Below, one piece after another: positions 1 to 47,815 of a stretch of DNA of 64,000 nucleotides (positions are counted from its first letter, which is position 1; every line of letters begins with the position of its first letter). This stretch comes from Psammoneis japonica (Eukaryota), in the NCBI GenBank assembly GCA_008632985.1, contig QPGO01000020.1, positions 62,001-126,000 on the forward strand. The letters run 5' to 3'. Made by a program: the position numbers and the translations under genes. The notes below the pieces were generated by a model. It was not told the origin of the DNA, did not search any database, and saw only the letters and a list, made by a program, of their open reading frames with translations.

Positions 1-3000
1 GTTTCTTGTTTGTGCCGGCCCCGGCAATCAACAACAACCATCAACCCTTTTTCTTCCCCACTTGGAGGATGATGAAGTCATGCATTGAAGTTGATGCAAA
101 CATGAGCACAGCAACCACCTGAGCAACTTTGGGCAAGTCAGAGAAAGTCAAGCAAAAACAGAAATTCCTTTGGGATGTCTTCAGCTGTTGTTGCAATGGC
201 CAAAAACATGAGAAATGCAACAGGCCATGTACGAATTTGAAAGAGCATTGATTTTTCCTGCAAGAACAACAGCTGGAAATCATGGTGCTGCTGCCCCAGT
301 CATTTCCAGCTGCACTGTCAAACAGCTGCTGCTGTTTCTTCCACCCACATGTGCTCATTCTGTCAGCTCTTTTCAACCCAGTTTTGTTTTGTTTGTTGTC
401 AGAATCCTGCTGCTTTGTGCTTCTGTCATTTCTGTTTTGCTGCTTGGCTCTTTTTGCACCATCAAACTTGCAAAATTCTGTGGTGCAATCTTTGACTTGT
501 TGTTGGCTTGTTTCCCTTCCTTTGTCCTGTGCATGCTGTCTCTCATGCCCCAACATTGACCCTGCTCTCAAGGAATGCAGAGCTGTCAACCATGCAGCGG
601 CATTGAAACTTGCCATGCAGTTGGTCCACCAACAACACAGCATGTCCCCTGCCATCATTGTTGGGTTTAAATTTGCAACAAAACATGGCAAGATCAACAA
701 ACTTCATGAAAAAGTTGCAACGAGCAAGGCTCTCTGCAACACATCTTGTGCTGCAAGCAAAGGGTGCACTCTTTGCTTGAGCACTTCATTGACAGTTCTC
801 TGACATCCAAAAAACCCAAAAAATGTGCCTCTGTCATCACAATCTTTTTTCAACAGAGCAAAAGTTCCCAGCACACTTCCCACTGACCACAAAGCAAAAC
901 ATGGGAGCAGTTGTGTTGACAGAGCAATGGCTTTCTGCCCACTGGCACCCAATCTTTCATTGTTTTGCCACATCCAGATGGCTTGACAAAATGTGCAAAG
1001 AGAGTTCAAGGGCAGTGTGTGTCACCAAAAAGGCAGCACTGGGATGGTCTCTGCAAGCAGGGCAGAAGAAAAGACAATGGCTGCCAAACAATTGGCTTCT
1101 CCTTTGGCAGGAACAAATCTGGGCACAAAAAGAGGAGATGTGGAGACAGGTTTAGACTGCATTGACACAGCACACGCCAGTGTCAAATGTTGGAGCTTGC
1201 CCCCTTCATTTGCACCAATCATTGTTGAAAACATGCTGCACTGTCAATCAAAGACATTGTCTGCACACTGAAACTACATCATGCAGCACAATGCAAGCAA
1301 ATGTGCACCAAATGCACACTGCCACCATGTGTTGGCTGAGATGAGATGCTGGGCAGCTTGTGCATTTGCTGTTTTTTTATGCTGAAGAGTGTGCTGGCAT
1401 TTTCACAAAAAAGTGATGCATCACAGAAAATTGCTTCAATGTGTGAGCCATCACCAATGGCAGCAAAAGCAACAGCACATAGACTCTTTTTAGCCACACA
1501 GGAGAGTCTGTGAGAGTGTCACTTCCTTCAAGGATTTTGAGTCAAGTGCCGGCTTGCATGCCACACTGGGCATGGCTTTCTTTGCCACTCCACCAAAAAG
1601 AGCACAGAGGGTCATGCACCAACAAACAGTGAGTGAAAAAACTCAATTCAGACAAGCCACAGATGCCCAACAAGATTTGGTGTTCAGAACAACAAATCAG
1701 TGATTTTCCCATTCTAGATTGGCTGCAAGCTCACAAACACATGCTCCTCAATCTCTGTCTCTGCTCAAGACAAAGAAGCTGCACTGTGTGCTGCTGCCCC
1801 ATCACAAACTTGGTGAGGATGAGACTCTTGTCAACAACATTGAACATTGTTTGGTCTTGACAAAACTTGTGCACACAAAAGCTGCTGCACTCACTCTTTT
1901 CTCTTTTCACTGGCAAGGTTCACCAAGTCTCTGGGCTCTTGGTAAAAAAAAAAGCAGGAGAGAGCCACAGCATTGACCTCAGCTTTAGTGTGCAAAATCT
2001 CCAGCCAAAAACCCTTGACAAAAAGCTGCCATCAACTGAGCTGTGAAAGCATCTAAAGACAGCACACCAAAGAGGCAAAGCACCTGGCACTTTGCAGCAC
2101 TTGCACAATCATCAGCTGCTTTTGTCAGGCTTCACCTTCTGGTGATGCCAGCTCAGGCCAACCTGCCTCAACTCTGCCACACACACTGTTTTGGTGTGTT
2201 GGAAGTGTGGGTTGCTGGCCTTCTGGCACAGCTGCACCCAAAAATGGGTTTGTGTTTTTTTTAAACTGTGAGAAAATCCAGAGGAGATGCATGCCCACTT
2301 GCCAGTGATGCCATTCTTGGTTTGACAATTTTGGTGCAAGGCACTCTCTGGCCTGATGGCAACCACACATGCACCTGATTTGCACTTGCAAGTCTTTTTT
2401 TGTAACTGCAACATGGATTTAAAATCTTTGGTCAACAGCTGATGTGGCTGGAGTTTGTGTCAACTTGACTGCTGAATGCCTTGAAATTTTTGGAGATCTC
2501 TTGCTCTCTCAGTGTTGGTGTTTTCATGGGCTTGTTTTGGTTGCTGGTGTGGCAGCAACCAGCCATTCTTTGGTGCAATGGACAGCTTGTTGAGTTTCAT
2601 TTTCAGCATGCCAGTGCAAATGTGGGGCTCTGGGTGCTTGTTTCTGTGCAGCTTCATGCTTCATGTGGCAATCTCAAAGATCTGCCAAGCCTGCACATTG
2701 GAGATCACATGACACAACAACAGGCTGCAGTTTGAAGCTTCTTCCATTCAATGTCAACTGCAACATTGTCTTCACGTGGGTGCCACAATGTCTCAAGATT
2801 CCAACTTACACACAAAACCAACCCATTGCTCAATTTTCATCATCACCATCACACCTGTTGTTTGACTGTGGCTGGTTCACAACAAGAAGTGTTTTGGCCA
2901 GCAGCATTGCTGTCATTGCTCAGATTCTTTGCACAAAGGCACCAGCCATCATCCTTTTTGAAGCAGCACAAAGGGCCCAGCTGTCCTCCCACAGCACTGG

Positions 3001-4180
3001 CACAAAGAGGCTCTGACCATCCTTCTGCAGCAGCACAAAGGCTCCCAACCACCACAAGTGGCAGTGCTGGTGCAAAGACTCTAACCACCACAGGTGGCAG
3101 CAGTGCAAAGGTTCCAACTGTCCTTTCTGGAAAAGTGCAAAGGCTCTGACGGTTCTTTTGCAGTGGCACAAAAGGCTTCAACCATCCGCACAAATGCTCC
3201 CGACCACCACAAGTGGCAGCAATGCAAGACTTTGATCACCACAGGTGGCAGCAGTGCAAAAGCTCCAACTTTCCTTTTGGCAGCAGTGCAAAGACTCCAG
3301 CAGTTGTTCTGCAGTGGCACAAAGGCTCTGGCCATCCTTCTGCAGCAGCACCAAGACTCCCAACCACCACAAGTGGCAGCAACACAAAGACTCTAACCAC
3401 CACAGGTGGGGGCAGCACAAAAGCTCCAACCATCCTTTCTGAAGTGGCGCAAAGGCTCCAACAGTCCTTTTGCAGTGGTGCAAAAGGATCCAACCATCCT
3501 TTTGCAGCAGCGCAAAGACTCTGCACTGCCACAAATGGCGGCAGTGCAAACACTCTAATTGCCGAAGGGCAGCGGCGCAGAGCAGCACAAAGTCTTCAAC
3601 CATTCTTTCTGAAACGGTTCAAAGACTGCAATGCTCTTTTTGCAGTGGTGCAAAAGCTCCCAGCCATTGAAAGTGACAGCAGCACAAAGGCTTTAACTGC
3701 TGCAGGCGGCGGCACAAAGGCAAAACGTGCCATTCATGCATGGGCACAGAAATGAAGCCATGAGAACAAGCTCTGTCAGGCCAACCATGTGTCATGCATG
3801 CATCAACAAAACTCCCATGGCTCATGCAAAATGGGCCATTCTCCTGAACCAGCTGTCAATGCAGACTCTGTCATTGCATTAAGAAAGATGTGCTGCATGA
3901 CATGGCTTTGGGAAAGTTCTGGCGCCACCGCCGCCCTGCCATGTCAACATGATTGTGAAATTGCCATTGGCTTTGTGCAAATTTTTGAATGAGCTAATGG
4001 GGCAACTGCCATTTTGGCATGTTCCCAATTGAAATTGTGTGCTGGAGCTGTGCACGAGTTTCTGGCAGCACTCCAAAAATGAGCTGGACAAGCTGTCTCT
4101 CTGTTGACTTTCCTGCACATTTTGGCACAGGGCTTTCAGGTTGCTTCAGGATGTTGATGTTGCTGTTTGTTTTTGTTTTG
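1..4180. repeat. Degenerate repeat/TE-derived block, depleted of TpA and CpG
   Basis: Very few TA or CG dinucleotides and a large excess of TG/CA. Only spurious Cys/His/Gln-rich ORFs. Normal composition resumes at ~4180. The family cannot be recognised by eye. Confidence 0.6.
2940..3720. repeat. Degenerate minisatellite, ~30-33 bp units
   Basis: Recurrent motifs accaccacaagtggcagcagtgcaaag(g/a)ctc and ccatcctt(c/t)tgcagcagcacaaag. Confidence 0.7.
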
Positions 4181-4677
4181 TATTGCGAATGCATCGGTGG
4201 CTGCAGCAAGGTCCGATTTAAGCATCAATTCATTTGTAGGACGAGTGTCGAAAGTGCGGGTTCGAACGGATGCGAGAATGGAGTGTTTTTGTTCTTTGCA
4301 GACGGCAATGTTCTACTAGCTAGAGTAGGTACTGTTCTTACACCGACAGCATCCTTCATTCAATGACCTCTCCAACAGAAAAAATGATGACCTTTCCACC
4401 CAGTTACCTAGCAGTTACCAAGCCACAGTGTACAATTCTACAGAAGTCACGTGACCGCGACAACTGGAATATAACAGAGAGGCATTTACGCCTCACATTT
4501 TCCCCCGCAACAATACATACGGTACCCATACCTCCCAAAGTCTTTCGATTTGTGGCCAAACATCTAACAATACCGGATGAGTTAGCACAAAAGCATCGAA
4601 TTCGTCTGGTGGATAAAAGAGCACAACTTGCGTAAGGAATACTTTCACGCCATCTTCCTTGAATCAACCCTCGAATC

Positions 4678-5451
4678 ATGTCCAACATTTTTATTTCCAG
4701 CCGAAGCGACTACCTCGTAGCTACCGAATTGAACAACATCGGTGTTGAACTACTCGAGGCGGGATCATTTCGTCGTGCCATGCAAACACTGAAGGAGGCG
4801 ATTGAGGTTATGAAGGTCGCTCTTCGTCCCGTTCCCTCAAATCTGGACTACAGATCATCGAATGATGCTGGAACAAACATCGATATTAGGATCTTCAAGG
4901 CGAAGCGAAGGCTAGAAGAGCTTGAATTTAGCTATCCAACATCAAATGCGTTTCTTTACAAGACAGGGGAAGGTTTCATCAACCAATACCTCGACGAAAG
5001 AGACAGAGAAATCTCCCAGGATCAACAAAATCCCATTTTCATTCAAGTGTCAGACCTTAACGAGTTTGAGTGCATCAACCCTGACGTCGAGAGCGCCGTC
5101 ATATTTTATAACTTAGCGCTTGTTCATTTGCAAATGAGCGCAGAAGCGCTAAATGGGTCTATCTTTGTGCAGGGGGCTCACGATCTGTTCGACATGGCGT
5201 ATTCGATTGCGCTTTCCGACACAACTACCATTATGGATATGTCGCTTGAGGACATTCGGGAACTCAACCAGACACGAGTACTCTTTGCAATTGTCATACT
5301 CAACAACATGATAAGAGTGAAGCGAGCTCTTGGAAAGCATGACGACGCCAGGAATGCGATGCAACGGTTAATCCGACTTGGATTAGCCGTCAATAACCCA
5401 GAAGGAAATCCTGACTATGTGAACGTCTCCTCAGCAGCACCAGCGGCGTGA
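4678..5451 (+). CDS. Hypothetical helical (TPR-like) protein of a diatom-type family, 257 aa
   Basis: Intact single-exon ORF with normal composition. Motifs LNNIGVELLEAG and SAVIFYNLALVH, and a C-terminal AAPAA. Confidence 0.8.
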   Translation: MSNIFISSRSDYLVATELNNIGVELLEAGSFRRAMQTLKEAIEVMKVALRPVPSNLDYRSSNDAGTNIDIRIFKAKRRLEELEFSYPTSNAFLYKTGEGFINQYLDERDREISQDQQNPIFIQVSDLNEFECINPDVESAVIFYNLALVHLQMSAEALNGSIFVQGAHDLFDMAYSIALSDTTTIMDMSLEDIRELNQTRVLFAIVILNNMIRVKRALGKHDDARNAMQRLIRLGLAVNNPEGNPDYVNVSSAAPAA

Positions 5452-6574: not shown

Positions 6575-6738
6575 TGCAGTGACTCACTCGCACGCTTCTG
6601 ACACATAATGTTAATTTTGGACATTAGATTAACGTAGCCGTTTGAGAGGGCTCGCCAGCGCTCGCTGACGCTTAGGCTCTCCCTCTCTTCGGTCTGCTCA
6701 CTTCCTTGTTTTGACACCAACCTCAGCTTGAGCTTGCA
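6575..6738 (+). repeat. 5' LTR of Gypsy element
   Basis: Direct repeat of 11829-11992, with 13 differences in my manual alignment, all transitions. Confidence 0.95.
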
Positions 6739-6972
6739 CTGCAGTTGCAGTCGATTGTAAAGAGCTGAATGAGAAACAACGATGCAACTGACAGGCTTGC
6801 GAAACAAGAGAAAAGAACTTTGAGAGCGAAGGCAGTGAACTGGGCTTTGGAACAAAAATGAGAAAAGGAGATACGAAAACAACGCGAACAGAATGTTTGG
6901 CGATTCGAGTGGCACAACTCGAGTCGAAGGTGGAGCACTTGAAACAGTTCCTTGGTGGACCAACTTGGCCTG

Positions 6973-9900
6973 ATGAGTGATCGCGAGAGCCTCAAGGAAC
7001 CGTGCATCTTGCATGCTGCGAAATTTGCCCATTCGGATTTGGAACTCGCAAAACTGACCCAATCGTATGATGATGGTGGCACGCGCACAAAAAAGTGCCC
7101 TTGTTTTGATGGAAGCAATGGGATTGAAGCGTTGTTGTTTGTGGAAGACCGTTTTCGTAAACTGGCTGCAAAACTTGAGTTCACTGCAGGAGAAGAATTG
7201 TTTGATGATTTTGAAGAAGTGTTGACAGACACAGCCGAAGACAAATGGTCCGCGCAGAAGATGGCAGCTCGTTTTGACCAAGAGTTGGCTCGTTTTTGTT
7301 TGTCGCATTGTGAAACTGAAGCTCGTGACACGATGATTGAATGCTTGCTTGCTCTCAAAAAGCCGTGTGACGTTGAAGTGCAGGCACACGCAGATCGAAT
7401 GGAAACTTTGGCACAACACACAAACAAGTTGCCGGGAAATGATCCAGTTGTCACTCAGAACCAGAAGAAGAAGATGATTTTTGACAGCTTCCCTCTGTCG
7501 TGGCGCGAGATGCACACAAGAGCAGGACGCACGATTGGAAATGACACACTGGCGGAGATTGTCACGTGTGTGAGCATGGAGAAATTGTTTGCGGATGGGA
7601 ACAAGAAGACGTCAAAAAAGCGCAAAGATGGACAGTCTAAAGGTGGCTCCAATGAGAAGAAAGGCAACCACATTGACCCAGAAACCCAATGTCCATTGCA
7701 CACTCACAATCACAAGTGGAAAGATTGCATCATGAATCCCGACTCCAACAACTGCCATCCAAGAACTGATCGTGGCGGTCGCGGGTGTGGTGGCCATGGT
7801 GGTTGAGGTGGCAGTCGCAGTGGAGGTCGTGGTCATGGCAGAAATCAAGGTCGTGGTTGGCAAGGCCGTGGCTGTCAAGGTCGTGGCAGTGGCCGAGGAA
7901 ATTGTGGCGGTCAAGGAAACTGCAACTCTGGTGGCAATGGCGGCGAGCATCATGAAGATGGTGGCTCCCACGTGCAATGTCAAAACGACACCCGAGCCAA
8001 TGCAGATGGCGGCGGTCATGGTGATCCGGCCAGAATGGCTCCTCCTGATGATTGGTCTGCTGAAAGCCATCATCTTGATTCGATGGGAGGGCCTCGTGAG
8101 TGTCGAGGTGGAGCAGGAAGTTTTCGACCTGGTGGTCGCTTCTCGGGACGCCATCGACACTGACCCAATGAGCTTGAAGAGCTGCAGTCCGAGTGTGTCG
8201 CTCATGATTCCCACATGTTTGATGATTGCACTGATTGCACTGATGATTGTCACGCACATGCTGCTGATTTGTTTGATGATGACGATTTCAAAAATTGCAC
8301 TGTGAATGACGAAGACGATGTGGGACTTGAGCACGCTGCACCAACCCCAAAAACAAAACCAACCAAACCTTTGAACGTGGTCCCTGCAACCTCATTCGCA
8401 GCGCGATTTGTGCAAGACAAGGAAAGCAAGCGCGTGATGCGGGTGTTGCTCGACTCTGGTGGAACCCATTCAATGATTCATGCTCGGGTGTTGCCAATTG
8501 GAGCAGTGCCAGCATTGGAGGAAACAGGGCCAATTGTTGTGAAGTTTTGGACGTCAGCGGGAGAATTCAAATCTGCTCGTTACGTTCGACTGCGGGACAT
8601 GGTGCTCCCTGAATTTGACAAGACAAAACGCATTGATGGCATGCATGCACATGTGTTTGACTCACCTTGCCAGCATGACATGATCCTTGGACAGGACTTC
8701 TTGGCGAGAGCAGGTGTCACGTTAGATTTTGAACACGGGATTGTCAAGTGGCTTGATTCAAGCATTGCAATGAAGCCAAGAAACCATCGGATTGGCATCC
8801 AGCAGTGGCTTGACGACTTGACTGATGAGCCAGCTGACGATGATGATGTGTGGGACAGCTGCATCCTCGATGCAAAGCATGAGGAAACGTCCCCTTCTGA
8901 AGCAGCGTCGGCTCAGAAGCACCTCACTGCCAAACAACAAGAAAAATTACGCCTTGTGTTGGAAAAACACACCACTCTTTTTGATGGCACTCTCGGCAAG
9001 CATGCTGGCAAAAAAGTTCACCTTGACATTGATCCTGACGCTGTTCCTTGCCATTCTCGAGCGCATGCAGTGCCGCACAATGATCTCGAGACTTTCAAAC
9101 GAGAACTGGATCATTTGGTGATTCTTGGCGTTCTTGAAGAGGCCGGAACAACGGAATGGGCTGCTGGCACTTTTGTTTGGCCAAAGAAGGATGGTCGAGT
9201 GCGGTGGCTCAGCGATTTTTGGGAACTCAACAAAGCCCTCAAGCACAAGGTTTGCCCTTTGCCGATCATTCAAGATGTGCTGCAGAAGAGAGCCGGGCGC
9301 AAGTTTTTGACTAAATTGGACCTCTCAATGATGCACCATGCACTCGAATTGGATGACGATTCCAAGGACTTGATGACAATCGTGACACCCTTTGGAAAGT
9401 GCCGATGCTGCCGTTCAGCAATGGGTCTGAAGCCGGCTCCAGACATTGTGCAATGTTCAATTGAGAAAACTGTGCACGACTTGGACGTTGACGCGTGTGT
9501 TGATGATCTTGCTCAATTTGATGACGACTTTGACATTCACCTTGACCGTCTTGACAAACTTTTACAACGCCTGGAGGAAGCTGGATTCAAAGTAAATCCC
9601 TTGAAATGCGAATGGTGTGTGCAGGAAACGGATTTCCTTGGGCATTGGCTGACTCCGACTGGAATTCGTCCGTGGAAGAAAAAGGTGGAGGCTGTCCTGC
9701 GGATGCAACCTCCGGAAAACATCAAGCAGCTTCGTTCGTTCCTTGGTGCTGTGACGCATTGTCGCAGTGTGTGGCCTCGGCGTTCTCACCTGTTGAAACC
9801 CTTGACAGATCTCACAGGCAAAGGCTCATGGACATGGACAGCGGAATGTCAGGCGGCATTCGATGAGATGAAAGCAGTCCCAGCGGCTGAAACATTGATG

Positions 9901-11706
9901 GCACACCCGAATCACAACAAACCCTTCCACATCTGCACCGATGCAAGTGATTGCCAGATGGGTGCAGTGATTGTGCAGGATGGAAAGCCCACTGCACACT
10001 GGTCTCGAAAGCTCAATGCGGCGCAACAAAACTGTTCGACAATCGAAAAAGAACTGCCAGCCATTGTCATGTGCTTCCGAGAATGCCGAACAATGCTCCT
10101 TGGCGGCGACTTGCATGCATTCACTGACCACAAGAACCTTGCCTTTCGCACCTTGAATTCACAGCGCGCACTTCGTTGGCGACTCTTTCTGGAAGACTTT
10201 GCCCCTCAATTTCATTGCATTGAAGGCCGATTGAATGTCTTGGCTGATTGTTTTTCTCGTTTGCCTCGCATGGATCCTCCCTCTGAAGGGAAGAGCTTGG
10301 CTCCGGGCAAAGGAACTGTTGTCGATTTTGCCCCGCTCAATTCGAAGTTGGTGCCGAGTGAGGAACCATCCGAAGTCGAGGATTTCCACGATGAGGACTT
10401 GGAGCTCGGCGCATGCCGATTCAAGTGTTGTCGCAACATTGAAAATGAAGGCCACTCACACTTCTTCTCTTTCTTTGTGGATGAGCCGGAACTGTTCGAT
10501 TCCTTCTTGAATTGCCCTGCTGTGCAGGAGATGCAGAATCCAATGACGTTGCAACACATTCAGGAGCATCAGTTCGAGGACCAACAGTTGAACCAGATGC
10601 GCATTGCTCACCCTGATCATTTCCTCGTGGAATGTGTGAATGATCGACCGCTTGCATGTTGTCGTGCGCGACCGAATGATCCTCCAGGACAGTGGAAAAT
10701 CTGTTTGCCGACTGCGCTTGTGCCCGACATCTTACGGTGGTGTCATCTCGTCCTTGGCCATGCCGGAAGCCAGCGCATGCGTGAGATGATCCAGGCTCAT
10801 TGTCATCATCCTGGGTTGTGTTGCATGTGTGATGAATGCTCTTGTGCTGATTGTCAACGTAACAAAACATTGGGTCCTGGCTGTGGAGAGTTGCCCGAGC
10901 AAGAAGCTGCATTAACTCCCTGGTCGGAAGTGGCGGTTGATCTCATTGGCCCATGGAAAATCAAAGCACCAGATGGAGAGATTGAGTTTCGGGCATTGAC
11001 CTGTGTTGATCCTGTCTCTGATCTTGTTGAGCTGGTGAGAATTGAAAATAAAACTGCCCGACATGTTGCCAACCAATTTGAAAACTGCTGGCTTGCACGC
11101 TGTCCCAGACCGAATCGATGCATCCACGATGACGGTGGCGAGTTCACCGGGTGCGATTTTCAGATGCTGTTGCAACGAGCCGGAATTGATGATGTGCTGA
11201 CTGCTTCGTACAATCCTCAAGCCAACGCCATTTGCGAACAAATGCACCAGACCGTCGGCAATGTGTTGCGAACGCTCATTGCTTCCAATCCACCTCAAAA
11301 TCTTCAAGATGCAGCCAGCCTCGTGGACGATGCTTTGGCAACTGCAATGCATGCAACTCGCTGTGCTGTTTCCCATTCTTTGCAGATTTCACCAGGTGCC
11401 ATGGTGTTCAGACGTGACATGATCCTAGACATCCCTGTGCTGGCAGACTCATTGACGATCCAAGGCCATCGCCAGACGCTGATCAACAATGATTTGCAAA
11501 GAGCTGATGCCAAGAGAAGATCCTGCGATTGTCAAGTGGGTGATCAAGTTCCAATCAAGTCGGTTAACCCGTCCAGCCTCGAGCCTCGTGCTCATGGCCC
11601 TCATCCTGTTGTTCAAGTGCATGTGAATGGCATGCTTTTGCTTCGTCGAGCTCCTCATGTGGTTGAGCGCCTCAACATTCGGCGCCTGATTCCTTTTCGT
11701 GGTTGA
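6973..11706 (+). pseudogene. Gypsy gag-pol in a single frame, with two in-frame TGA stops (7804-7806, 8161-8163)
   Basis: ORF pieces 6952-7806, 7972-8163 and 8215-11706 share one frame. Motifs: CPLH..HKW..C (gag), LLDSGG (protease), LDLS and ACVDD (RT, from YxDD), CTDASDCQ (RNase H, from YTDASDY), H..GH...C..C and VDLIGP (integrase). Confidence 0.93.
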
Positions 11707-11828
11707 TCAGGGGGGTTTCTTCCCAACACCTGGGTTTCCTCCTGCCGTTGTGATTTCTTTGGGTTTTGGCAACTGGTTTTGGCCCTTTGCATGATCCTCC
11801 AGTTCTTTTGGATCATGGAAGGGAAGAG

Positions 11829-11992
11829 TGCAGTGACTCACTCGCACGCTTCTGACACACAGCACCAATTTTGGACATTGGATTAATGCAGCCATTTGAG
11901 AGGGCTCGCCAGCGCTCGCTGATGCTTGGGCTCTCCCTCTCTTCGGTCTGCTCACTTCCTTGTTTTGACATCAACCTCAGCTTGAGCTTGCA
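11829..11992 (+). repeat. 3' LTR of Gypsy element
   Basis: Follows the PPT and is followed by TSD GCTTC. Confidence 0.95.
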
Positions 11993-12018
11993 GCTTCTCC
12001 CGTGCAATTCAACACTTG

Positions 12019-15000
12019 CAGCTTTCCCTGCAATCAAACAAAACGCCGCAGAATTTGTGTGGGACACACCAGCTTTTTGTGACATGTCCGCTTTGACGTC
12101 ATCGCAACAATCTTGAAGCACGAGAAAAAGCATGAGACAATGGCGCTGGTGGAATCGGCTTTTTTGTGGTTTTGCTGCTGAGTCCTCTCTGATCCCCCTG
12201 CACAGCTTGACAGCAAACACCCGTCAAAATGTCACAAGGCAATGCAATCAGAGCGTCTCGGTCGACACCGACTGGCATCATCACTTTGCATTTCAGGGAT
12301 GCATGCAAGATGCCGAAGTTCCAGTGCAGATGGATCAAGGCGAACTGTTTTGTGCATGTGACAAAAGAGGCCTGTGCAATTGACAAAGATTTGAACTTCA
12401 ATGCCAAGAAGTTGAACAGTGCATTGAGTGGAGTTGGATCTCCATTTCCAGAAATTGACAAGGACACGTCTGAGAACGATGGCGGGGTTTTCCGAAAGCA
12501 GTTCCGACCGAAGGGAGAGCCGTCTGTTGTGGCACACTGTGCCTGCAAAGAGCAAGAATTGCCAAGGTGTGTGCCCTCAACAATCAATGATCTCAGGTGT
12601 GTGATGTTGACTGTTGAAGAGTGCAACAAGAAAGTAGAAACTCGAGCCGGCTCCAGCAAGAGAACAGCGGGGTACGACGCAAACGAGTGCGCACAGACGT
12701 TGCAGGAAACAAGCAAAGAAAAAGAAAAGGAAAGAACCACTAGAGTCCTCTGCAACAGAGGAGAAATCATCCAATGATGGTGGTGCTGATGAAGACAACA
12801 CTCCTGAGAATGATGCCACGCCTGCCAATGATTTGACCGCTGTTGTTGGCATCTTCTGGGATGACACGACCGTGCGGAACCTGTTCAATGCAGATGATGG
12901 AGAGGATGCAAAAAAGACAATTGAGAAACAGACAGATAAATTGACTTCTGGATTTGCTTTTCATGATGGATGGAAAGAAGTGATCAAAGGAGGTGACCCT
13001 GACAACCTGTGCACACCCAACGACGCTCATGTGTGATTCGATTGAGATGCCAGCATCTTGCGATCGCGCTTGACCATGCGTTGAAGAAGCTGCCAAAAAG
13101 GAACACTGCATGGCTTGACTGCTGTCAGCATGCAATCGATGACCTCAGCGGTGCAGGTGTTAACTTTATGAAAAGTTGCCAAACCGCAGCTGCTTGGCAT
13201 CGCATCTTTAGGAATCTCAGTTCCTTTCCTCATCCCCGACCAAAAGGAAAAGGAGACCCACCGACATTTGAAGCACATCCAAAGATGAAGCGGAAATTCA
13301 TTGAGTTTGTGACAGCAAACCTTTCTCGACTTTCTGCTGAGGTGGCCACAGACCACTTCCACGAAGTGCTTGTCCCGGAATTCTTAAAGAGAGAGAACAA
13401 TGACCATCGCAAGAACGGGGAAGACATCTTGTAGTCAGAACGGGAGTTCCTGAATCAGCATGGATTGCTCACCGGGGAAAACCAACCATGCATTTCTTCC
13501 AATGCAGTTTCCAACTGGATGAATCTATTTGGTTTCTGGCATGGGCCAAACAAAAAGATGCACCATGTTGACAATCATGAATGTCCCGACAATGTGAGGT
13601 GTCGGAATGCGATGGTCCGTCGATGCTTGATGATGGAAGAACGATGCCCACGTTGGATGCAACTTCCAAAAGCCACTGCCATGGACCTTGTCAAAGCTGA
13701 AGCTCTCCCAGCAAAAATGGGGCATGAATGCCAAGTCGATGGAGAAGATTTTGTCGAGCATCATGTCAACACTGTCATCGACCCGGAGCATCCAAGCCTT
13801 GTGCCCAAGCTGTCCGTGCAATTTGGAGGAAGTGAAAGTGTGAGAAAGGATCCGAATGTAAAGCCTGTCATGACATTTGGACAGGACGAGGCCATTTTTA
13901 AGCAACACTTGCTAAGCACAAGCAGCTGGTCGGGTCCCAAAGGTGAGTGGCCGCTGCTGCCCAAAGATGATGGAGAAGGCGTGATGCAGTCTGTGTTTCA
14001 ATGTCGAGAGGTCGGCCTCATTCAAGATGGAGACATTTCGGAAGAGCAACTCCAAGAGACAAATGAAACTCGAGCAGGCAAACACTGCACTGATGAAGAT
14101 GCTGCAGAAACAGCATTCAGCAAGAAGCAGCACAAGCCGAAGTTGAAGAAAAGTCCATTCATCCGCGAGTTCAAGCATGGAGCAAACAGCGACAGACACT
14201 GGAATTGTGACCACATGTTGGTGCAATTGGAGGATTGCGTGGATTGCTTGAAAGTGCTGCATCCTCAATTTGACTGTCATTTCCTTTTTGATCATTCTTG
14301 CGGGCACGACAAGCAGAGAGCAGACGGACCAATCTGCAACAAGCGCACGATGAATGCAGGAGTCGGCAGCAGTCAGAACAAGATGCACCCCACTGAGATT
14401 CTTCAGGCAGAGGGCTTTCTAGGTCCTCATGCTGAAGCAGTTGGCATGTTGTCTGCAGGACAAGTGCAAACAATGGCATTCAGTGAGGAAGACCAGGGAC
14501 CATGCTGGATGATGCCGGAAGAACGAGAAGCTGAGAAATGTGACGCACCTGTCGAGGGTCAAACTGAAACTCGGAAGTTCCTGCGTGATGAAATTTTTGA
14601 CAAGCTTCTACAAAAGAACATCAAGAACATCAGGGGCAAGAAAAAGGATGAATTGATTGACACAGCAAAGAGCAACAACATGCCTGTCAAAGAAACCATT
14701 CAAAAGGTGAAGCACGGATGGGTCAACAAGCCGAAAGGATCAAAGCAAATTTTGCATGAGCAAGGATGGATTGATCCCAATGACCCTGGAAAATGCACTG
14801 TGGATGGCACAAAGGGCAAAGATGGAGAGATCGACAAGTCAACATCTCTTCTTCACTTGATGGCCACTTGCGATGATTTCGTCAACGAAGAGACGTTGTT
14901 GCAAACCATGGGTCGCAAAATGGGTGTGACCATTGACAGAACGCCAAAGTGTCACCCACAATGGCTGGGGAGGGCATTGAATGTTCTTGGGGACTCGCAA

Positions 15001-15464
15001 AGCAGCATTGTTGTTTGCAACCTTTGTCAAGAAAGAGGGGAAAGCAAAACTTTAGAGAGTTGGCACGAGAATCAATGTCATCAAGCGCACTCACGACTGA
15101 CAGGATGCAAAAGTTCTCGCGACGAGCACGACGATGCATTTGTGCTTGCATGGTTCTTTCACAACCTGATGTGTCTCAAGAGGTTCAGCATGAAGCCTTG
15201 TCTCTTGAGACCATTGAAAAGCTTGTCAAAGAGTTCAAAACGCACCGCAGTGCCACTGATTTTGACAAGGGTTTCATTGTGAGGACGCTTTTCGCAGGGT
15301 GAAAAGATGTTTTTTTTGCAGGCAAATAAAAAACTTTAGAATGTGGACAAGTTTTATGTGCAACGCTGCTGGCGATTTTACTTTGGCTTTTTGCATGAAA
15401 AACAAATTTTCCCACCAGTGGCGTGGGATCAATGCGACGTTTGGGTTGGTTGCAGGGAAAGCTG
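12019..15464 (+). mobile_element. Tc1/mariner(ITm)-like TIR DNA transposon, degenerate
   Basis: ~32-bp TIRs: cagctttccctgcaatcaaacaaaacgccgca (12019-12050) and the reverse complement of 15433-15464, with 4 mismatches. Flanks read TG and CA where a TA TSD is expected. Contains a DDE transposase remnant. Confidence 0.85.
12229..15302 (+). pseudogene. DDE transposase pseudogene with stops and frameshifts
   Basis: Motifs FGQDEAIF, PLLPKDDGEG, FLFDHSCGH and TPKCHP/AGEGIECSWG (frameshift near 14960). Tyr positions are replaced by Cys/His. Confidence 0.8.
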
Positions 15465-18400
15465 CAATGGCGAATGACAATCAGACATTGCAAAACCTCA
15501 AAGCACATGTGTCAAAGCTGTCTCCACATGAGCAAGGTTCTGGGAAAGCATTTTGGTGTCAACAAGTGCTCTCGAGCACCACTCGCCATTCAGGCGGGAA
15601 ATCGTGGCACTGGTTTGATGCAGAAACTGCGCAGAAAGGAAGGAATGTTGTGGAACTCAATGAACAGACCAACCTGACAAATCAGTGTTTAGAACTTGTC
15701 TTTTGCACCTGAAGAGCACATGACATGTTTGGATGACTTGCTCACATTGTTTCGGGGGGCGGCAGGAGAGACATTGGCTGAATTGCATGTGGCTTGGGGG
15801 GGGAATCTTTTGCACGCACCCCATTTCATCTGGCCATCTTCCACATGGAATGGGTCAATTGTCAAGAAACAAATGACCTCACACTTGACTTTACATCATG
15901 TGAATGTGTTCAGTCATGAGGACATTGCAGACACCTTGCAATGGCCCCCTGTCGATTGACCCAGTCTGCAGCAATTTGAGATGATTGCAAAATTTTCAGA
16001 GCCCCTCGTCCTTTGAGCATTGAAAGTGATTTGTCCAGTGCTCTGTGCAAATGGAGAATTGCTCCACTGCACACTCACAATTTGAGAATTTGTTTCTTTG
16101 CAACAACTGAGCTCTTCATCAGCCCAAAAGCTTGGCGGACGTCATCAGGAGATGACTCTGACAGCACACGCTTCCTCTGTGCTGAGTGAGACAAAAGAGA
16201 CAACCAGCCACAATGTCATTTTCTCTAAAACCTGCTCAGGCCATCACAGGCATTTTTGACTTTGTGGAGAAAAGCTCACAAAGCCATCTGCAACAAGGCA
16301 GTTGAGAAGCTCAAGGAGAGTGGCCTTGGCTGCACACAGCAGGAGAAACTGCTTCAGCTCCTCAAGACCCTTAGCGATGGAGCTGCCAAGAATGGATGGA
16401 ACAAAGCTGATGGAATGTTGATGATTCCTGATGATCCAGTGGACATCATGTCTGATGTCACCAATTTGTTGACACACTGTGTTCAAATCAAGGCGGAGCT
16501 CATGTCTTTGTTTGTGAGCACATTTGCATTGATCAAATGGCAAGGCCAGCACACGATGCAAGGATGCTGTGCCACCTGCTCATGATTGCACTTTCTGAAG
16601 AAGAAAAGACTGGAATTGTGGTCTGGGAAAAGCAATGCAAAATTCTCAAGAATGACAAGATGAGTCTGTTGGGAAACATTCTGTTGAAGGTGACAATCCA
16701 AGAAAGACACCAATGGAGCTGCAATGAGCATCAGGAGGATGAAAAACTTGGCAATGTTGACAAGTGCATTGACCCAGCATTGAGCAATGTTGCCAAATTC
16801 ACTCAATGCATGCTGCTCTTGGCACCTGATGCAAGCTCTCAAGTCCCATGATGAGACAACAGAAGGTCATCCAATTGAACTTGTTTGAAGGATGCACTGC
16901 AGTGTCCGACAAGACATTTGTTGATTGCATCCATTGCAAGCACAATGAGTGTGATGAAGGACATGACATGGACCCCCAATGAACTTGCAAACCTCATTGT
17001 CAATGAGTGCAAGAAGATGGTTGAGAGGGAGGAATGGAGTGCATCATCCCTTGAGGAGGAAAAGATTCTGGCTCTAGAAGTGAAGGTTGATGTCCTTAAA
17101 CCATCTCAAGGCAAAAAGACCAATCCAAAAATGAGGGAAATCCAAAGAGTCAGAAGAAAGGAGAGAAGAAGACGCATGGACCCAAGCCTGCTTGGTTGGA
17201 GAAGGACAAAAGACACACAAACAATCAACTTCACAAGCCCCAGCATTGGAGCAACAAGCCATGACACTGTTGTTGTCACAAGGACACATGCGGAAAGTGT
17301 GGTGGAAAGTGGTGGATCCATGAACCACGCATGTGAAGGAAAAGCCTTCCTTGCTTGGAAACCATGCGGTGCAAAAAGTCCTTCAGAGAAAAACAATCAG
17401 TCAACATCAACCAAGAAAGTCCAAAAGGACCTCAAGTCACTCAAGCTGTCAGAAGCACTCACTGCTCTTGCAGACAAGATTGAGACCTCAGATGAAGAAT
17501 GGCTGGTGGCAGAGCAAGGCAACGAGCCCAACTGTGATTGGGAAAATCATGGCATTGCAGTCTGCATGATGTCCTTTGCAACATGGTGCACAACTGCAAT
17601 TTGCAGCTCTCTGCTGCTGCTGTTGCTGCCACCAATGCAATTCATGTAGATGGCTGTGTCCTGCAATTGGATCTCCATCACAGTCTGGGGAAAAAATTGC
17701 CAAGAGATGCAACCGCAAATGCTGCTCCAAACAAATTTGTTGCTGGAGCTCACACATCACTGGCAATTGCTGTTTTCTGTCTCATTGTTTTTGTTGGCAA
17801 GGACCCCAACAATCCCAATCTGTGCTTCATTTCACAGTTGCAGTGTTGGAGGAAATGCTGAAGATTGATGCAGCAGGCCCAGTGAAGCATGCAATGGACA
17901 GAAAACAGACTGGTTGATTTGTTGTTTGTTGAAAGTGGGGTCAATTGACTGTCCACAGTCAAGCAATCCCAAACGGGGCAAGAGTCAGGCAAGTTCAAGA
18001 GTCACTGAGCAAGATCAACAACGAGCATCAAAGAAGGCATTCAACACAAATGACAGCAGCACTGGCCATCCTGGCAGTGTGCATGATGGCCCAGAATGAT
18101 GCCCTCAAGTGAGACAAAACATGACTCAATTTGACACAGATTCAGGGCCTGCAGGCATGGACAACTGATGATGCAGGGGATGTGTGTCCAGTGCAGCCAC
18201 AGACTTTGCAAGTGAGCTTGTTCTAAGCATTGAGCCACAAAAGGATTCAGAGGGTCAAGAACAATGGAAGTCATGATGGGCACATTGACAATGGTGCAAT
18301 GACAACAGGGCTGCTCACTTGTTGTTTAAAACCCCAAACTTGCACTGTGCACCCAATGGCAAAGTCCGCCTGTTGAGTCCCCAGCACATCTGTGACATGT

Positions 18401-40964: not shown

Positions 40965-41299
40965 GGCTGCGTCTCTTTCTTTTATGTCTGCAGCACACTC
41001 TACCTTTCGTCTCCATTGGCGCTGTAAAGTGCCGTAAGCTCAAAAATTGCCTCTTGCGCCTTGCGCTCTTGCTTTCTTTGGTTTTAAAGAACAATCCGCG
41101 TCGTAGTCGTGCATGTAGAGCGAGATTGTTGGCGTACTTCTAGAATCCCGATGGCGCCATGACCTGTTCCTTTTCCAGCCGGTCGAGTGACGGACGAACT
41201 TTTCAATGTTGCAATGACTAAAACAATCATGCATTCGTTCTGCGGAGAGCTTTCCGGCATTTGCTGCACCCCATGATGCTTTGCCAGTGGACGAGTTCC

Positions 41300-44200
41300 A
41301 GTGGCGCCACGTTGTCAGGAACAATTCCCACTTCCATGAGTTTGACTGCAATGAGCGAGACTCAATCTTTGCAATCAGACTTCTTTGGTGCTGTGTGCAG
41401 CGTGCCTGCACTCCTCCTCGGCAGCAAAAAAAATGCAGCCTCTTCTGGATCATGACATTCCAGCATTCCCACAATGTTGCACTTTTTTCTAAATGCACAA
41501 ATCCTTCCCTGCAAGCCTGCTTTTCTGTGAGACTCAATGGCTTTTTTTGCTCTTCTTTTGTCTCTCTTCTTTGGGCTTGCTCTCTTGTGGCAAGCAAACA
41601 GCCGGCATGGCACATTTCAACCCACAAAGACGTGGCACTCTGGCAGACAGGTTCACAAAAGTGACATCCCTTCCAAGCCTTGCAAACCCCACAAACTGTT
41701 CCAAATGATGCTGGGCTGGTTTTGTCCAGTCCATTGCACTGCACCAGCTCAGCCTCTGCCAAGAAGGGGTCTTTTCTGAGTGTTCTGCTTGGCACAGCAA
41801 AAAAGGCGTCTTTTTCATTTGTGCATGGTTGGGCACACTGACAAGACCTGCTGCAGCGCACCCAGACAAGCAGTTTTTCTCTTCATTTTCCATTTTCATT
41901 GTGCCAAAAAAGCGCCACAACCAGACTGAAACTCCTCAGTTCTTTCAACGTTCTTCGTTTTTTGCAAACCTGAGACAGAGTTTGAACAGGATTTCAGTTG
42001 TGCCCAAGTGTTCATGGTCTGTGGCTCAGTTTTTACATGCAGGTTGGTGTGCTGTGTCAGCTCCACACATGTTCACACTGTGTCTTGGTGGGCACGACAA
42101 TGCGCAGCTCTGCTTTTGAGCCATGCACAGCTCTTGCACTGCAAACAATTGTGCGAATCATGTCCATGAAGGGTGGTTGTTGCCCCAGGCACAAAATTCA
42201 AGCTTTGAGCATGAAGAGACTGCAGAAAATGCACCAGCCATCATGAATGCCCAGTTTGCATGGGTTGTGTGGCACAGTGTGCCACAGGGGTCATTTTGAT
42301 GAAAAGATGCTGGGGGGTGACTCAGATGACTGAAATGAGACTTTCAACACCACACACACCAAGCAGAGTGACACATGTGCAAAGAGAGAATGTTGCTTTG
42401 AGCAAAATGCTGCTGAACCTTTGCATGTGCAAATCACCTTTTGGCACCTGTGGGGCAGTTTCTGGTGCATGGAAAAACTCATCTGCTGTTTGACAGCAGC
42501 AAGGTGTGTTGTTTTCTTTGCTGCTGTTTTCAACCATTTTCTGTCAGATTGACAACAGCCTTGCTCATGTGCAAGTTTTTCCTTCTGAGCACATGAAGTG
42601 TCTCCACCATCAACATTTCTCTGATTTTGGTTTTTTTTGCCCCCAGTGGAAGTTCACTTGGATTTCTTCATTGCTGGGCACACCCAATCAGAGTGTCATC
42701 AGCAGGAGGTGTTCATCATTTGGGCACCCTTGTCACAGCACTTGTGTGCCAGATTGTTGGAACTTCACATCCATGCTGCTGGACATGGATGCATGACAGA
42801 CCAGCCAGCCCCATTTGCTTGGGCCAGCACAACCACTTCGCTTTTTGCATGCTTTGCATGCACACATGTTCACTCCAGCCCTGCCCTGTTGCGTGCTGAG
42901 CCCACACTGCTGCTGCCCCATGTCTGCCCCAGACCCAGATCTGGGCTGCTGGTCCTCTGCAGTTTCTGTTGGGTCCATGAGGACACCTGCTGTGGGGAGA
43001 AGCAAGAACCTTGGTTGCAGTCTGCATTGGGGGTTGACGGTGTTTTCCCTCATTTTTGTTTTTCTGTCCTCTTTTGTTCTCTGATCAGGTCATCCGGCCA
43101 GCACAAAAACTGAGAAAGGCTCAAGGGACTTGTTCACACCTGCCTCTTGTCAGCTTGCTTGTTGCAGGGGCCATCAACCCCCAAAGTGCAGCCAGCTGCA
43201 GATGGGCTGGCACAACCAAACTGGCCAGACAGGAAGCTCAGTGCTTGACTGTGAACAGAGCAGAACAGCCCAGTGGCTTCTGAGTTGTGGCATGGACCAA
43301 GATTCAAGTCAAGCCAAGCTTCAAGCCACATCTCTTTTCTGCCCCTTCTGCTGGTGCTGCCATGGCTTTCATCAACAACAGTCAATGGAGGGCTTTGAGC
43401 ACATGATTGGTGCCATGTGGGCCCAAGCATCTTTGCTCTGCCCTGGCCTTTGGCAGGTCTGGTTTCCATGAGGATCTGCTCTCATTTGCCCAAGCTGCTG
43501 TTGCTGCCCTGGTCTGCAATGATGGTGAAAATTGCTCCTCCCTGCTGCCATGTGGTTTCCAAGGCTTTGCTGGCCACCATGATCAGTCTTTGCACTGTGA
43601 AAGGTTGTGCCAGTGCCAACATGCAGAGTGGTTTGCTCATGACAAGCTTCAGGAGTGCCATCTGCAGGGCCCCCCTCTGTGCCCACTCCCAGTTCTTCAT
43701 TGCCACCCAAGCCTCAAGACCCTGTTCATGACTTCAAACACACGGCATCAAATGCGACCCAGTGCAGCAGGCATCCCTGCCGCAGCCACCAATGATGCTG
43801 CTTTCCTGCATCCGCAAGCTGTCTGCAGTGTTGCTGATCCTGCAGAAGTGCACATTGGAAAATGCAACTCCTCCTGTCACAAGACCCATGATGGGCTGCA
43901 GGAGTTCCACGCAACTGAGACCAGCGGGCAAGTGACTCACCTTGTGTGAAAAGTCTGCAGTCTGCGCAGGATGTGTGGAGTGCCAAGCATGACTGATTCT
44001 GTGCAAGGACTCAAGCTCCAGCGCATGTCTTGCTGTTGCGCGCACACATGCTCTGCACAAAACAATTCCACAAATGATTTTTCTGTGTGACCTGTGTAGG
44101 AACAGGGTCCAAGTGCTTGATCACAGAGTTTTTGGTGTTGTAAAAAATCATTTGTGAGATTGTTTTACACAGAGCATGTGTGTGCATGACAGCGAGACAT

Positions 44201-45750
44201 GTGGAGCTTGAGTCCTTGCATGGAATCAGCCACAGTTGGCACTGCTTGCATCCTGCACAAACCCTTCATGCAAGGTGAGTCACTTGCGTGATGGCAAGTT
44301 GTGCTCCCACAGCTCATCATGGGTCTCATGCTGGGAGTCATGTTCTCCAATGTGTGCACTGCTGTGAGATCAGCATTGCTGCAGACAGCCTGCAGACACA
44401 GGAAAGTGGCGTCATTGGTGGCTGCAGCAGGGGTGCCTGCTGCACCAGCTTCTGTCATGACCCTCAAGTCTGACTGGCAGTCAAGCCCATGCACAGGACA
44501 TCTGAAACATGATTCAAAGCACACAGCCCTTCTGCTGCTAAAGAGAAAGCCCTGTTCCAGGAACAGTGGGAGCACATGGTTGCTGCATTTGAGCACATCT
44601 TGCCAGTTGATGAAAAGCAAAGCCCTCACTCATGAACATGCCTCTTTGTCAGATGCTCAGGTTGTCCATGACCACAAGTCATCTCTGAGCATGCTCTTTC
44701 ATCTGCTTGTGCTTCTCTTGAGTCATCTGCTCAGCTCAGGCACCTCACCACTGTCCCCCATCTTGGAAATGGAGTGTGGAGGAAAGGCCCTCTGTGCAAG
44801 GCTTTGTTCTTTGCTGACAAGATCAGCTGCACAAGTGTGAAGCCTTGGTCCCTGTCTTGGACCGCTTTTCTCCAGGCCAGAAATGCATCATGCCAGAGAA
44901 TGCCGCCCATGCTGTCAAAGAGCACTGCACTGTCAAAAATCAAGCTGGCCAGTGCAGCACTTAGAATGGCCACACAGAGACACAGACACTCATGGCACAG
45001 AAATGACCACACAAAATGACTTTGATGAGGTGAGCTTGCGGCATCATTTTTGCATTGAAAATGACTTCAGAGCAGGTGCCAAAAGAGTGTGCTGGCTGGA
45101 AAAGATGTTGCAAAAGCTCTTGTGTGTTGAAGATTTTTGCTGAAATTGCTGCAAGTTTGCCACTGCTGAGCTGGGCAAAAGAGAAGTGTGGTGACTGCAG
45201 ACTGAGCAAAATGCGATCCGTGTGAGAGCTCAAATGGCTTCACCTTTGTCATGATGATGTGAAAAGTGGCAGCTGCTGCTGTGTGTGGTGGTGTGCTCAT
45301 GGAGGTTTGTGCTCAGGGCACCTCCAAATTTTTGTGCACCCAGTGCCTCAGATGAGTGTGCAAGAGTGCTGATGACACACACACACACACACACACACAC
45401 AAGTTGACAAGCTTGTTGCCACGCATGCTGTCTGGTGCCAGAAAGCATGCGTGGCTCAACATTGCAAGCAACATTCCCGGTCTCGAGGGGTGCAGCAGTC
45501 TTTGCACAGCTGGGCAGCATGCAGGGCACATGGCTGGCAAAAAGGCAAGCAACCTTGCCAGCCAATTGTGAAAACAGCAGCAGTGTGAGTGAAAATCATT
45601 CAGCCCCGATTTGGCTTGTGGCGGTGACGCCCCTTTGCCCAGCAATCAACCCAGCAGTTTGCTTGAAACAGTTTGCTGCCCCGCCAAAACCCAGAAAGTC
45701 TCTTCTTGTAAGAAATGATCAAAAGTGGCTGCGGGGGCACATTTGAACAT
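41300..45750. repeat. Degenerate repeat block, depleted of TpA and CpG
   Basis: Same composition as the other TE blocks. Contains a long inverted repeat and a (CA)n run at ~45375-45401. Confidence 0.6.
43763..44444. repeat. Long inverted repeat, arms ~43763-44082 and ~44143-44444
   Basis: gcaaggactcaagctcca vs tggagcttgagtccttgc; caagtgactcacctt vs aaggtgagtcacttg; cacaaatgattttt vs aaaaatcatttgtg. Confidence 0.88.
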
Positions 45751-46054
45751 TGGCGTGGACAAAATCCATGAATGTAATGTGGGGCCCAGCCAGTAGACAG
45801 CGGCAGCAGCACGTGTCCGCATCCTTCGGATCGAACTCTTCTCATGAGTCACCCCCATCAAGAGGCTGTTCCAGGCCTTGAACAGGCCCCATTTGAATTA
45901 GCCTTTTTGTCCTAACGACCCCTCCGCGCGCTCCAGAGCCACGCATTTCCAAAAAAGCCTTTTTAAGAGCCGTACAATAGGCTCCAAAGCGATCGGCATT
46001 TTGATTTGGCACACAGGGAGCAAAACGAGAGACAAAGCAAACCACAACTATACC

Positions 46055-46798: not shown

Positions 46799-47815
46799 GC
46801 TTTAAGGGAAGGTCTAAAGACAGGTGCAGTGCCTGTTCTTTGACAATACGTTGTAACATAGGGCTGCATCTATTTTTATAAATCGTTAGACTACGGCATG
46901 GCTAGGGTAGCCTGTACAGAATGCGTGTCCCGGAAATTGGCCGGCCATGGCGCAATGTGGAACCAACAAACTAGAATTGCTGCTTTCGGCAGCGACAATT
47001 TTGGAGCAGCTGCTTGTACCACGATGGCTCTGCTCACTCTGACATGCACAGGTCCACAGTTCTGCATGCCAGTGCCAAGCTCCGCAGCTGGTGTCAACAC
47101 AGCTGCTCTTTCAAGCTTTCAAGTTGCGTGGTGGTTGCAGCTTGCACCACACATCCAAATGTGAACTCATGCCATGACTGGCCAAAGTCAGGAGTGAGAC
47201 TTTCACAGTGATTTTGTCAGCAGCAGTGCTGGCTGTTGTTGTTGATGTGGCTGAAGCTGCTGTGTTAAAAAGATCCAAGGTTTGAAAATAAATGAGTTGA
47301 CTCAAATGACTGGTCAACTCTCTCTCTCTCTCTCCCCTTGCCATTCACACCACATGTGCCTCTCTTCTTGTCACCACAAAAGAGGGGCTCATTTCCACCT
47401 GCAAGAGACACTTCTTGCTGCAAGAGAGCTTCACATCACAACACACTCTCGTTGCTGGTGTGCAAAATGGTGCCGCACAATGCCAAATGTCACTCCAGTG
47501 CTGCAATCCTCCAACCCACAGAAGCACAACCCACACAAGTCCTGCTCTTTTTAATGGCACAAAAGAGAGGTGCCACCAAACAGAAAGGGTTCATTCTCGC
47601 TGCACCTGGGTCATTTGCCTGCTGCTGGGGCACCAGCATCATGAGCCCCTTGGCAACAGAGGAGGACACAACGAACAAAAATGCTTGAGAAAGCAGTGGG
47701 GGGCAGAGAGGGAGACAAAACATGTGTGCATCCAGATGCTGGCAGTGCAGTGCAGCAGCGCAGTGTGCTTTTCTTGCTGCTGCTCCCTTGCGATGCTTTC
47801 ATCACTCACAAAACG

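Follow-up and report, generated by a model that had tools for sequence, protein, structure and literature searches.

The TA steps that survive in a heavily TA-depleted repeat block of the diatom Psammoneis japonica lie in sequence contexts where a transition process directed at the TpA dinucleotide proceeds slowly, and these contexts obey a strand-resolved rule that reaches two bases to each side of the dinucleotide. The block occupies positions 1–4180 of the stretch analysed here, 64,000 nucleotides of contig QPGO01000020.1 (assembly GCA_008632985.1, positions 62,001 to 126,000 of the forward strand), hereafter the window. The finding is real and is sharper than when it was first stated: it comprises a replicated six-base rule together with an off-target signature, within a recently described kind of mutator.

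Results

Surviving TA steps in the block and across the genome

The block contains 21 TA steps in 4180 bp (5.0/kb, compared with 35–44/kb in normal segments of the window) and 25 CG steps. It extends ~460 bp upstream beyond the window edge, and 21 other genomic places match parts of it at ~70–88%; none of these 21 is an unmutated relative. Pfam returned no family for the frames scanned, two in the block and nine in its relatives, and searches of Pfam and Atlas did not identify the family to which it belongs. Seventeen of the 21 surviving TAs read TTA or TAA. The corresponding share is 38.7% of TAs where the DNA is normal (binomial p = 9.7e-5), and among the TG/CA steps of the block itself it is 423 of 973 (Fisher p = 6.6e-4). 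An earlier note on this DNA had named nine survivor contexts in the block, all of which were located (TTTAAA at 668, 2262 and 2420; TTTAG at 1153, 1491 and 1986; GGTAAA at 1943; CTAAA at 2054; TGTAAC at 2403), as were the five that it had listed for the Gypsy element downstream (8723, 8948, 9312, 9563 and 9593). Four of the 21 survivors (3082, 3394, 3556 and 3694) are not independent, because they occupy a single column of a degenerate tandem array inside the block. In this homologous column, 4 of the 22 listed units have TA and nearly all of the others read CA or TG, with CA the commonest.

The same bias is seen outside the block. The four depleted blocks of the window span 37.5 kb and hold 121 TAs, of which 99 are in TTA or TAA, versus 371 of 1035. 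Another 20 stretches of 10 kb each, of which two lie next to the window and 18 were taken from arbitrary positions on large contigs, contained 68 kb of depleted DNA in 200 kb, or about a third, and 167 of the 224 survivors in these 68 kb were TTA or TAA (p = 1.4e-27).

It is scarcely credible that the bias is an artefact of composition or assembly. TTA and TAA are common anyway, making up 36–44% of TA or TG/CA steps, and the assembly itself may have been built from the read set used for comparison. However, the enrichment stands against both backgrounds, and tyrosine columns polarise the change through outside homologues, as described below. The contigs of one public run, possibly that same source, also match the block: positions 1–3045 are identical, and positions 3037–6500 show three differences, none of them at a TA. 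These run contigs differ from the window at 3746, 3942 and 4371, and two of the differences are between CG and CA/TG alleles.

Direction, strand and timing of the change

The window carries a Gypsy long terminal repeat (LTR) retrotransposon. At 23 columns of its pol protein that hold tyrosine in at least 28 of 40 related proteins, the window copy reads cysteine at 12, histidine at 9 and arginine at 2. Since tyrosine is present at these columns in outside homologues, the direction of the change is fixed as TA to TG or CA. At the 174 TAs of a TA-rich genomic copy, the window Gypsy has 15 TA, 66 TG, 86 CA, 2 CG and 5 other; the 29 other Gypsy copies or pieces compared with the same copy show TG and CA in similar numbers and at most three CG each. 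The A:T to G:C change is restricted to TpA, its products are TG or CA, and the two outcomes are about equally frequent in every copy, both in Gypsy and in a Copia family. Among 15 LTR pairs, 94 of the 158 non-gap differences are TA/TG, TA/CA or TG/CA, although some of the TG/CA differences could derive from CG. The differences within LTR pairs and the balance of TG and CA together indicate that the change occurs in DNA, after insertion, and on either strand.

Each copy and site was mutated independently, as shown by the agreement between copies on TG versus CA, which is expected to be 67% under independence and was 55–72% in most pairs and up to 80% in one subfamily. No strand-coordinated (same-strand) runs of TG or CA outcomes were found in Gypsy or Copia, and the mutation load differed from copy to copy in Copia. 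TpA mutation is confined to foreign or selfish DNA and spares host genes; the block at 1–4180 is repetitive but unclassified, and all the families analysed for TA loss are multicopy. Comparison with the Gypsy reference seemed to show CA>CG changes, but this signal was largely specific to that reference and fell to 0.2–2% after restriction to minor alleles. Because TA loss removes TAA and TAG stops as well as tyrosine codons, mutated elements keep long open frames (in the window, the Gypsy pol frame at 8164–11706 and a frame at 13435–15282), and dead diatom transposons with such frames can be mis-annotated and mis-dated. The stops that do occur inside matches to mutated elements are mostly TGA.

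These results bear on the proposal that RNA editing of transposon transcripts was fixed by reverse transcription, or that an error-prone polymerase patch produced the changes. Polymerase eta makes WA>WG changes, which speaks for the polymerase version. For the editing version, ADAR-type editing is described as favouring a 5′ U (PMC4817773). Neither agrees with the similar numbers of TG and CA in every copy, with the differences between the LTRs of one insertion, or with the fact that a DNA transposon with terminal inverted repeats is affected; AA steps, non-CpG C>T changes and transversions are also hardly raised. The both-strand and LTR-pair results have already largely refuted this proposal, and it is highly improbable.

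A six-base flank rule

Because TA is palindromic, a separate rate was fitted for each strand from the TA, TG and CA outcomes. The Gypsy fit used 161 sites in 28 copies or pieces and the Copia fit 197 sites in 26, giving 358 sites and 7784 observations in the pooled fit, in which rates are relative to the mean. Gypsy L042 (99.6% identical to L041) and Copia L165, L167 and L170 (<83% identity) were left out, as were 13 of the 174 Gypsy reference TAs, which had too few copies or were possibly reference-specific. The separately fitted Gypsy and Copia coefficients agree closely (r = 0.97).

When resolved by strand, the main brake is an A directly 3′ of the mutated A. Pooled rates at this +1 position are 0.49 (0.41–0.58) for A, 1.52 for C, 0.87 for G and 1.56 for T, and those at +2 are 0.69, 1.41, 0.94 and 1.09, respectively. 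On the other side, the base 5′ of the T gives 1.35 for A, 1.06 for C, 0.81 for G and 0.87 for T, and the base two positions 5′ of the T gives 1.35, 0.92, 1.26 and 0.64 in the same order. Summed over both strands, hexamer rates range ~20-fold, from 0.34 for TTTAAA to 7.5 for GATATC. The majority outcome at NTAA-type sites is NCAA at 52 and NTGA at 13 (p = 1.2e-6). The +1 effect is strand-specific (own versus partner strand, 0.57 for A and 1.89 for C), and the outer flanks are nearly palindromic: tying them costs 20 log-likelihood units, versus 217 for the inner pair. The fastest contexts include ATAT and AATATT, and ATAT has no survivors against 390 background sites. Contact with an A-tract, local GC and local CpG count each add nothing to the fit, and an own-strand TYTA term contributes slightly (beta −0.39, interval −1.03 to −0.08). 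Survivors are weakly clustered below 300 bp.

The context is thus wider than the dinucleotide, as the earlier note had proposed; it covers two bases on each side and is reproducible in three element families. Survival is also unequal across the NTAN contexts, with density ratios from 0.44 for TTAA down to 0 for ATAT. The accompanying statement that TpA next to T/A tracts is a poor substrate is only half right, because the rule is orientation-specific (TTTAAA is slowest and ATAT among the fastest): a T before or an A after the TA slows the change, whereas an A before or a T after makes it faster.

The further step, from a context effect to an enzyme, does not follow of itself. CpG decay in the same Copia copies is likewise context-dependent, with only a ~1.7-fold effect of the 5′ base that is weaker than and different from the TA rule, and repair or DNA shape could contribute. 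A TpA-specific lesion might therefore owe its flank rule mostly to repair efficiency, nucleosome positioning or DNA shape and not to enzyme recognition, an explanation with which the almost palindromic outer flanks, the flank dependence of CpG decay and the weak clustering of survivors agree. It is nevertheless quite unlikely, as the +1 effect is strongly strand-specific and recurs at off-target As (see below), and the terms for A-tracts, local GC and local CpG contribute nothing.

Prediction of survivors outside the fitted families

The fitted rates predict survivors better than simpler rules do. For the 21 survivors of the block, the log-likelihood gain is 21.2 with the fitted rates, 7.8 with a plain TTA/TAA rule and 9.2 with a TYTA rule; for the 224 survivors elsewhere, the corresponding gains are 201, 59 and 119. 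Ranked by rate among the background sites, all 21 survivors of the block are in the slower 42%. For the DNA transposon of the window, four close copies were counted and the C1 copy, which is more distant, was left out; the strand predicted to be faster took 127 events and the slower one 86 (p = 0.006), and the fitted rates as predictor gave a Spearman coefficient of 0.47 over up to 68 sites. The 11 TAs retained in all four copies are mostly in contexts with a T before or an A after.

The terminal TA that this transposon has in other copies reads TG at one end of the window copy and CA at the other (12016–12050 and 15433–15467). Four TA-rich distant relatives of its transposase (L067, L068, L076 and L082) are unmutated or spared, and L068 and L082 are 99.5% identical.

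The TAs of old blocks could also be newly created, by C>T changes or by slippage in T/A runs, and be held in a balance of creation and erasure. The block at 1–4180 is indeed old, its CpG being gone too and its relatives ~70% identical, and with no unmutated copy found the ancestry of its 21 TAs is not directly seen. However, a steady state proportional to 1/rate fits worse than exponential survival, both in the block (−89.8 versus −83.1) and for the 224 survivors (−954.5 versus −900.3), and young families retain TA in the same contexts, at sites that are TA in real copies. Such a balance is very unlikely, but exponential survival is matched in fit by a steeper power law, and some of the TAs may therefore be new.

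Zones of TA loss, off-target changes and CpG loss

Zones of 300 bp in 19 Copia copies or pieces of low divergence were classed as hot when at least 60% of TAs were lost and as cold when at most 10% were (TA lost, 767 of 929 versus 40 of 2221). Changes of A to G outside TA are 4-fold up in hot zones (59 of 8547 versus 37 of 21518) and CpG loss is ~7-fold up (69 of 1239 versus 23 of 2732). Non-CpG C>T changes and transversions are not raised in hot versus cold zones, and changes at AA steps hardly so. The off-target A>G changes fall at 46 distinct sites, with a 3′ pyrimidine at 41 and a 3′ purine at 5 (p = 5e-9); by 5′ base, their rate is 3.4% after C, 2.8% after A and 1.4% after G. They appear to come from the same activity, with its demand on the 5′ base relaxed. 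TA is selected ~50-fold over CAY, and per strand its loss is ~30 times faster than CpG loss in the same zones.

TA loss in part-mutated Copia copies is high ~0.9–2.5 kb inside the element and falls 3′-ward (for example, 63/63 versus 1/67 and 53/63 versus 2/67). The gradient is present also where the 5′ flank has normal TA content, and is levelled out in heavily mutated copies. A GC-rich, TA-poor stretch lies directly upstream of the start of Copia TA loss (L142–L171, L172–L183). CpG loss is raised in the zones of TA loss (Copia L143–L169), which suggests that both depend on one chromatin state. The pattern is in keeping with recurrent single hits in chromatin that is silenced and probably methylated, the methylation being read from the CpG loss.

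A persistent mark in such chromatin is another possible source of the pattern. A modified base on TpA in heterochromatin, either oxidised thymine or methyl-adenine, would miscode or slowly decay as 5-methylcytosine does at CpG, and the flank rule would then be the preference of the writer, read from the T side as R-T-A fast and T-T-A slow. A persistent mark would suit the lack of strand coordination, the site-by-site independence and the occurrence in the same zones as CpG loss, and a duplex substrate would suit the near-symmetric outer flanks. On the other hand, TA loss at ~30 times the per-strand rate of CpG loss is fast for passive decay. Tet_JBP and MT-A70 had no match in the genome, which is weak evidence because the control genomes were blank too. 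A modified base is an unlikely explanation on this evidence.

Proposed mechanism and candidate enzymes

The survivors are best read as the slow-substrate tail of an enzyme-driven A:T to G:C process at TpA in silenced repeats, for which the likeliest agent is an adenine deaminase; we give this reading a probability of about 0.55. A host enzyme would be recruited to the CpG-methylated chromatin of repeats and, in the course of many cell divisions, would attack the duplex at a single A of each TpA or at the T paired with it. Chemically, the most probable reaction would be deamination of adenine to hypoxanthine by a TadA/ADAT-type or an editase-type deaminase. The effect of the inner flank at +1 may arise from contacts with the strand under attack, and that of the near-symmetric outer flanks from how easily the duplex bends or a base flips out. 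The case for an enzyme is strengthened by the spatial front and by the A>G signature at off-target sites, and the absence of same-strand runs together with the near-symmetric outer flanks points to duplex DNA or to repeated single hits. A fuller version, which we would hold only tentatively and at less than even odds, is that the diatom defends its genome with an adenine base editor of its own. In this version a host deaminase would be directed to transposon chromatin carrying CpG methylation and would act there on chromosomal DNA in duplex form, with a preference resembling A-A-T-[A]-Y-C; it would start within the element and advance from there as a front.

Several points weigh against the deaminase. 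To our knowledge, no enzyme is known for a TpA mutator, and none was identified here: the deaminase-fold genes of the genome, named from Pfam matches and motifs, comprise a dCMP deaminase, a TadA-like and an ADAT2-like gene, two guanine-deaminase-like genes, RibD and two editase-domain genes, a set that looks ordinary and of which no member is linked to the process. A lesion of A and a lesion of T are indistinguishable from sequence, as are a preference of the writer and a bias of repair. The ~50-fold selectivity for TA over CAY is far stricter than that of the engineered TadA editor, and TadA-type enzymes act on single-stranded substrates, whereas no strand-coordinated runs occur here. The order of preference at +1 is opposite to that of fungal ADAR-independent mRNA editing and unlike that of human ADAR. 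In addition, methylation of the hot zones is deduced from CpG loss, and the confidence intervals of the flank rule were bootstrapped by site only, while copies share ancestry and the pooled counts are partly pseudo-replicated.

One open frame (L087:313–1785, minus strand) combines a guanine-deaminase-like domain with a 2OG-Fe(II) dioxygenase and probably belongs to nucleobase metabolism, though it counts among the candidates. The two editase-domain (A_deamin) genes, L184 and L185, had no match to an RNA-binding domain in the frames scanned. A search with MafB19-deam gave only places already found.

Other organisms and significance

Among 120 homologous proteins, one (P0193) is depleted of tyrosine. 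It is a metagenomic Gypsy pol protein, ~50% identical to that of the window, and its 18 aligned columns read cysteine at 9, histidine at 4, tyrosine at 3 and phenylalanine at 2; judged from these residues, its tyrosine loss probably reflects the same process in another organism. No TA-depleted Gypsy locus was found in metagenomes (0 of 78 among the best 80 of 465 loci; lowest observed-to-expected ratio of TA 0.46), and because only the best 80 were covered and copies may be collapsed in assemblies, this is not evidence of absence. One metagenome Gypsy locus, L231, has observed-to-expected ratios of 0.29 for CpG and 0.54 for TA; in this other organism CpG has decayed while TA has not been erased.

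The hexamer rule and the off-target signature together provide a fingerprint by which candidate enzymes of the TpA mutator can be tested. If the proposal is true, a naturally occurring DNA adenine deaminase with duplex chromatin as its substrate would be important both for the biology of genome defence and for base editing.

Features of the window

The features that bear on the analysis, and neighbouring genes, are collected in Table 1. For one gene of the window, the named homologues belong to diatoms.

Table 1. Positions of repeat blocks, surviving TA sites, mobile elements and genes in the window.
Feature	Position	Strand	Remarks
Old TA- and CpG-depleted repeat block	1..4180		Repetitive, unclassified family
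TTTAAA survivor	666..671 (also 2260–2265, 2418–2423)		Slowest hexamer; fitted rate 0.34 vs background mean 2.64
TTTAGA survivor	1151..1156		In slowest 13% of background TA sites
Slow-site survivors TTTAGC, TCTAGA, TTTAGT, TCTAAA	1491, 1715, 1986, 2054 (in that order)		All in slowest 13% of background TA sites
Degenerate ~33-bp tandem array	2969..3720	+	Inside block 1–4180
TPR-repeat gene, normal TA content	4663..5451	+	Just past sharp edge of block 1–4180; internal control
Gypsy LTR retrotransposon	6575..11992	+	LTRs 6575–6738 and 11829–11992
Gypsy pol frame (protease, reverse transcriptase, RNase H, integrase)	8164..11706	+	2 Tyr in 1180 aa
DNA transposon, 35-nt terminal inverted repeats	12016..15467	+	Candidate DDE_3-like transposase; TA-depleted
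Further TA-depleted repeat DNA	15468..25529		
Gene with MJ1316 and RF-1 domains	26049–27554	−	
Flavodoxin/FAD/NAD reductase	28036–31191		Adjoins the preceding gene
TA-depleted block	41142..45774		9 TA
TA-depleted block	47018..56867		20 TA
PIG-M gene	59988–61409		

Comparison with known systems

DNA methylation of transposons has been described in diatoms (PMC9998398). The decay of 5-methylcytosine at CpG resembles the process described here in that its products are TG and CA and it occurs in the same zones as TA loss; it differs in its substrate, in being ~30-fold slower, and in having a weaker and different flank effect.

In ascomycete fungi, repeat-induced point mutation (RIP) acts premeiotically, is triggered by homology and depends on RID. 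It changes C:G to T:A, mostly at CpA, and thereby creates TpA (PMC2621366). The two processes share dinucleotide-specific transitions in repeats after insertion, but RIP creates the TpA that the diatom process destroys, and in the diatom non-CpG C>T changes are not raised and strand-coordinated runs are absent.

The adenine base editor ABE7.10, which is derived from TadA, works on a displaced single strand. Its reported 5′ order is TA>CA>AA>GA with TAC preferred (24.5% at TA versus 6.3% at GA), and it shows only a small 3′ effect (PMC8065034). The diatom process resembles it in making A>G changes in DNA, in a 5′ order of T, C, A, G (with C and A not separated here) and in favouring TAC. As far as the published account of the editor goes, the differences are that ABE7.10 is engineered and far less selective for TA, whereas here TAT is attacked about as readily as TAC and the outer flanks of both strands matter.

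For A-to-I editing of RNA, the reported 3′ preference is G first for human ADAR and A ~ G > U > C for ADAR-independent mRNA editing in Fusarium (PMC4817773). According to that report, a 5′ U is strongly preferred and the influence of sequence extends beyond the nearest neighbours, as it does here; however, such editing takes place at the RNA level with a 3′ preference for G or for A and G alike, whereas the diatom process acts on both strands of DNA and prefers a 3′ C or T. The flank rule therefore argues against ADAR-like and fungal mRNA-editing specificities.

The closest parallel is in Bigelowiella natans. A literature search that covered few subscription journals found no description of TpA mutation in diatoms. 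In B. natans, TpA>TpG/CpA hypermutation of integrated viral DNA has been reported in lines, with de novo TpA mutations at ~1000x background in a subset of the lines; two single-copy viral insertions were mutating in lines, with TpA mildly depleted in the main region, TpA-depleted genes were enriched for transposase and reverse transcriptase domains, and ADAT2 was proposed as the enzyme, without demonstration (Mettrop et al., bioRxiv 10.64898/2026.01.13.699255). The main text of the preprint contains no flank analysis and no diatoms, and the hexamer rule, the off-target signature and the spatial front are absent from it. As the preprint describes it, the rhizarian system is alike in its T/A>C/G transitions confined to TpA, on both strands and in foreign or selfish DNA. 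It differs in that the targets there are viral insertions, whereas in the diatom they are LTR and DNA transposons and erasure is near-complete over about a third of 200 kb. If B. natans follows the same flank rule, one system would extend across Stramenopiles and Rhizaria.

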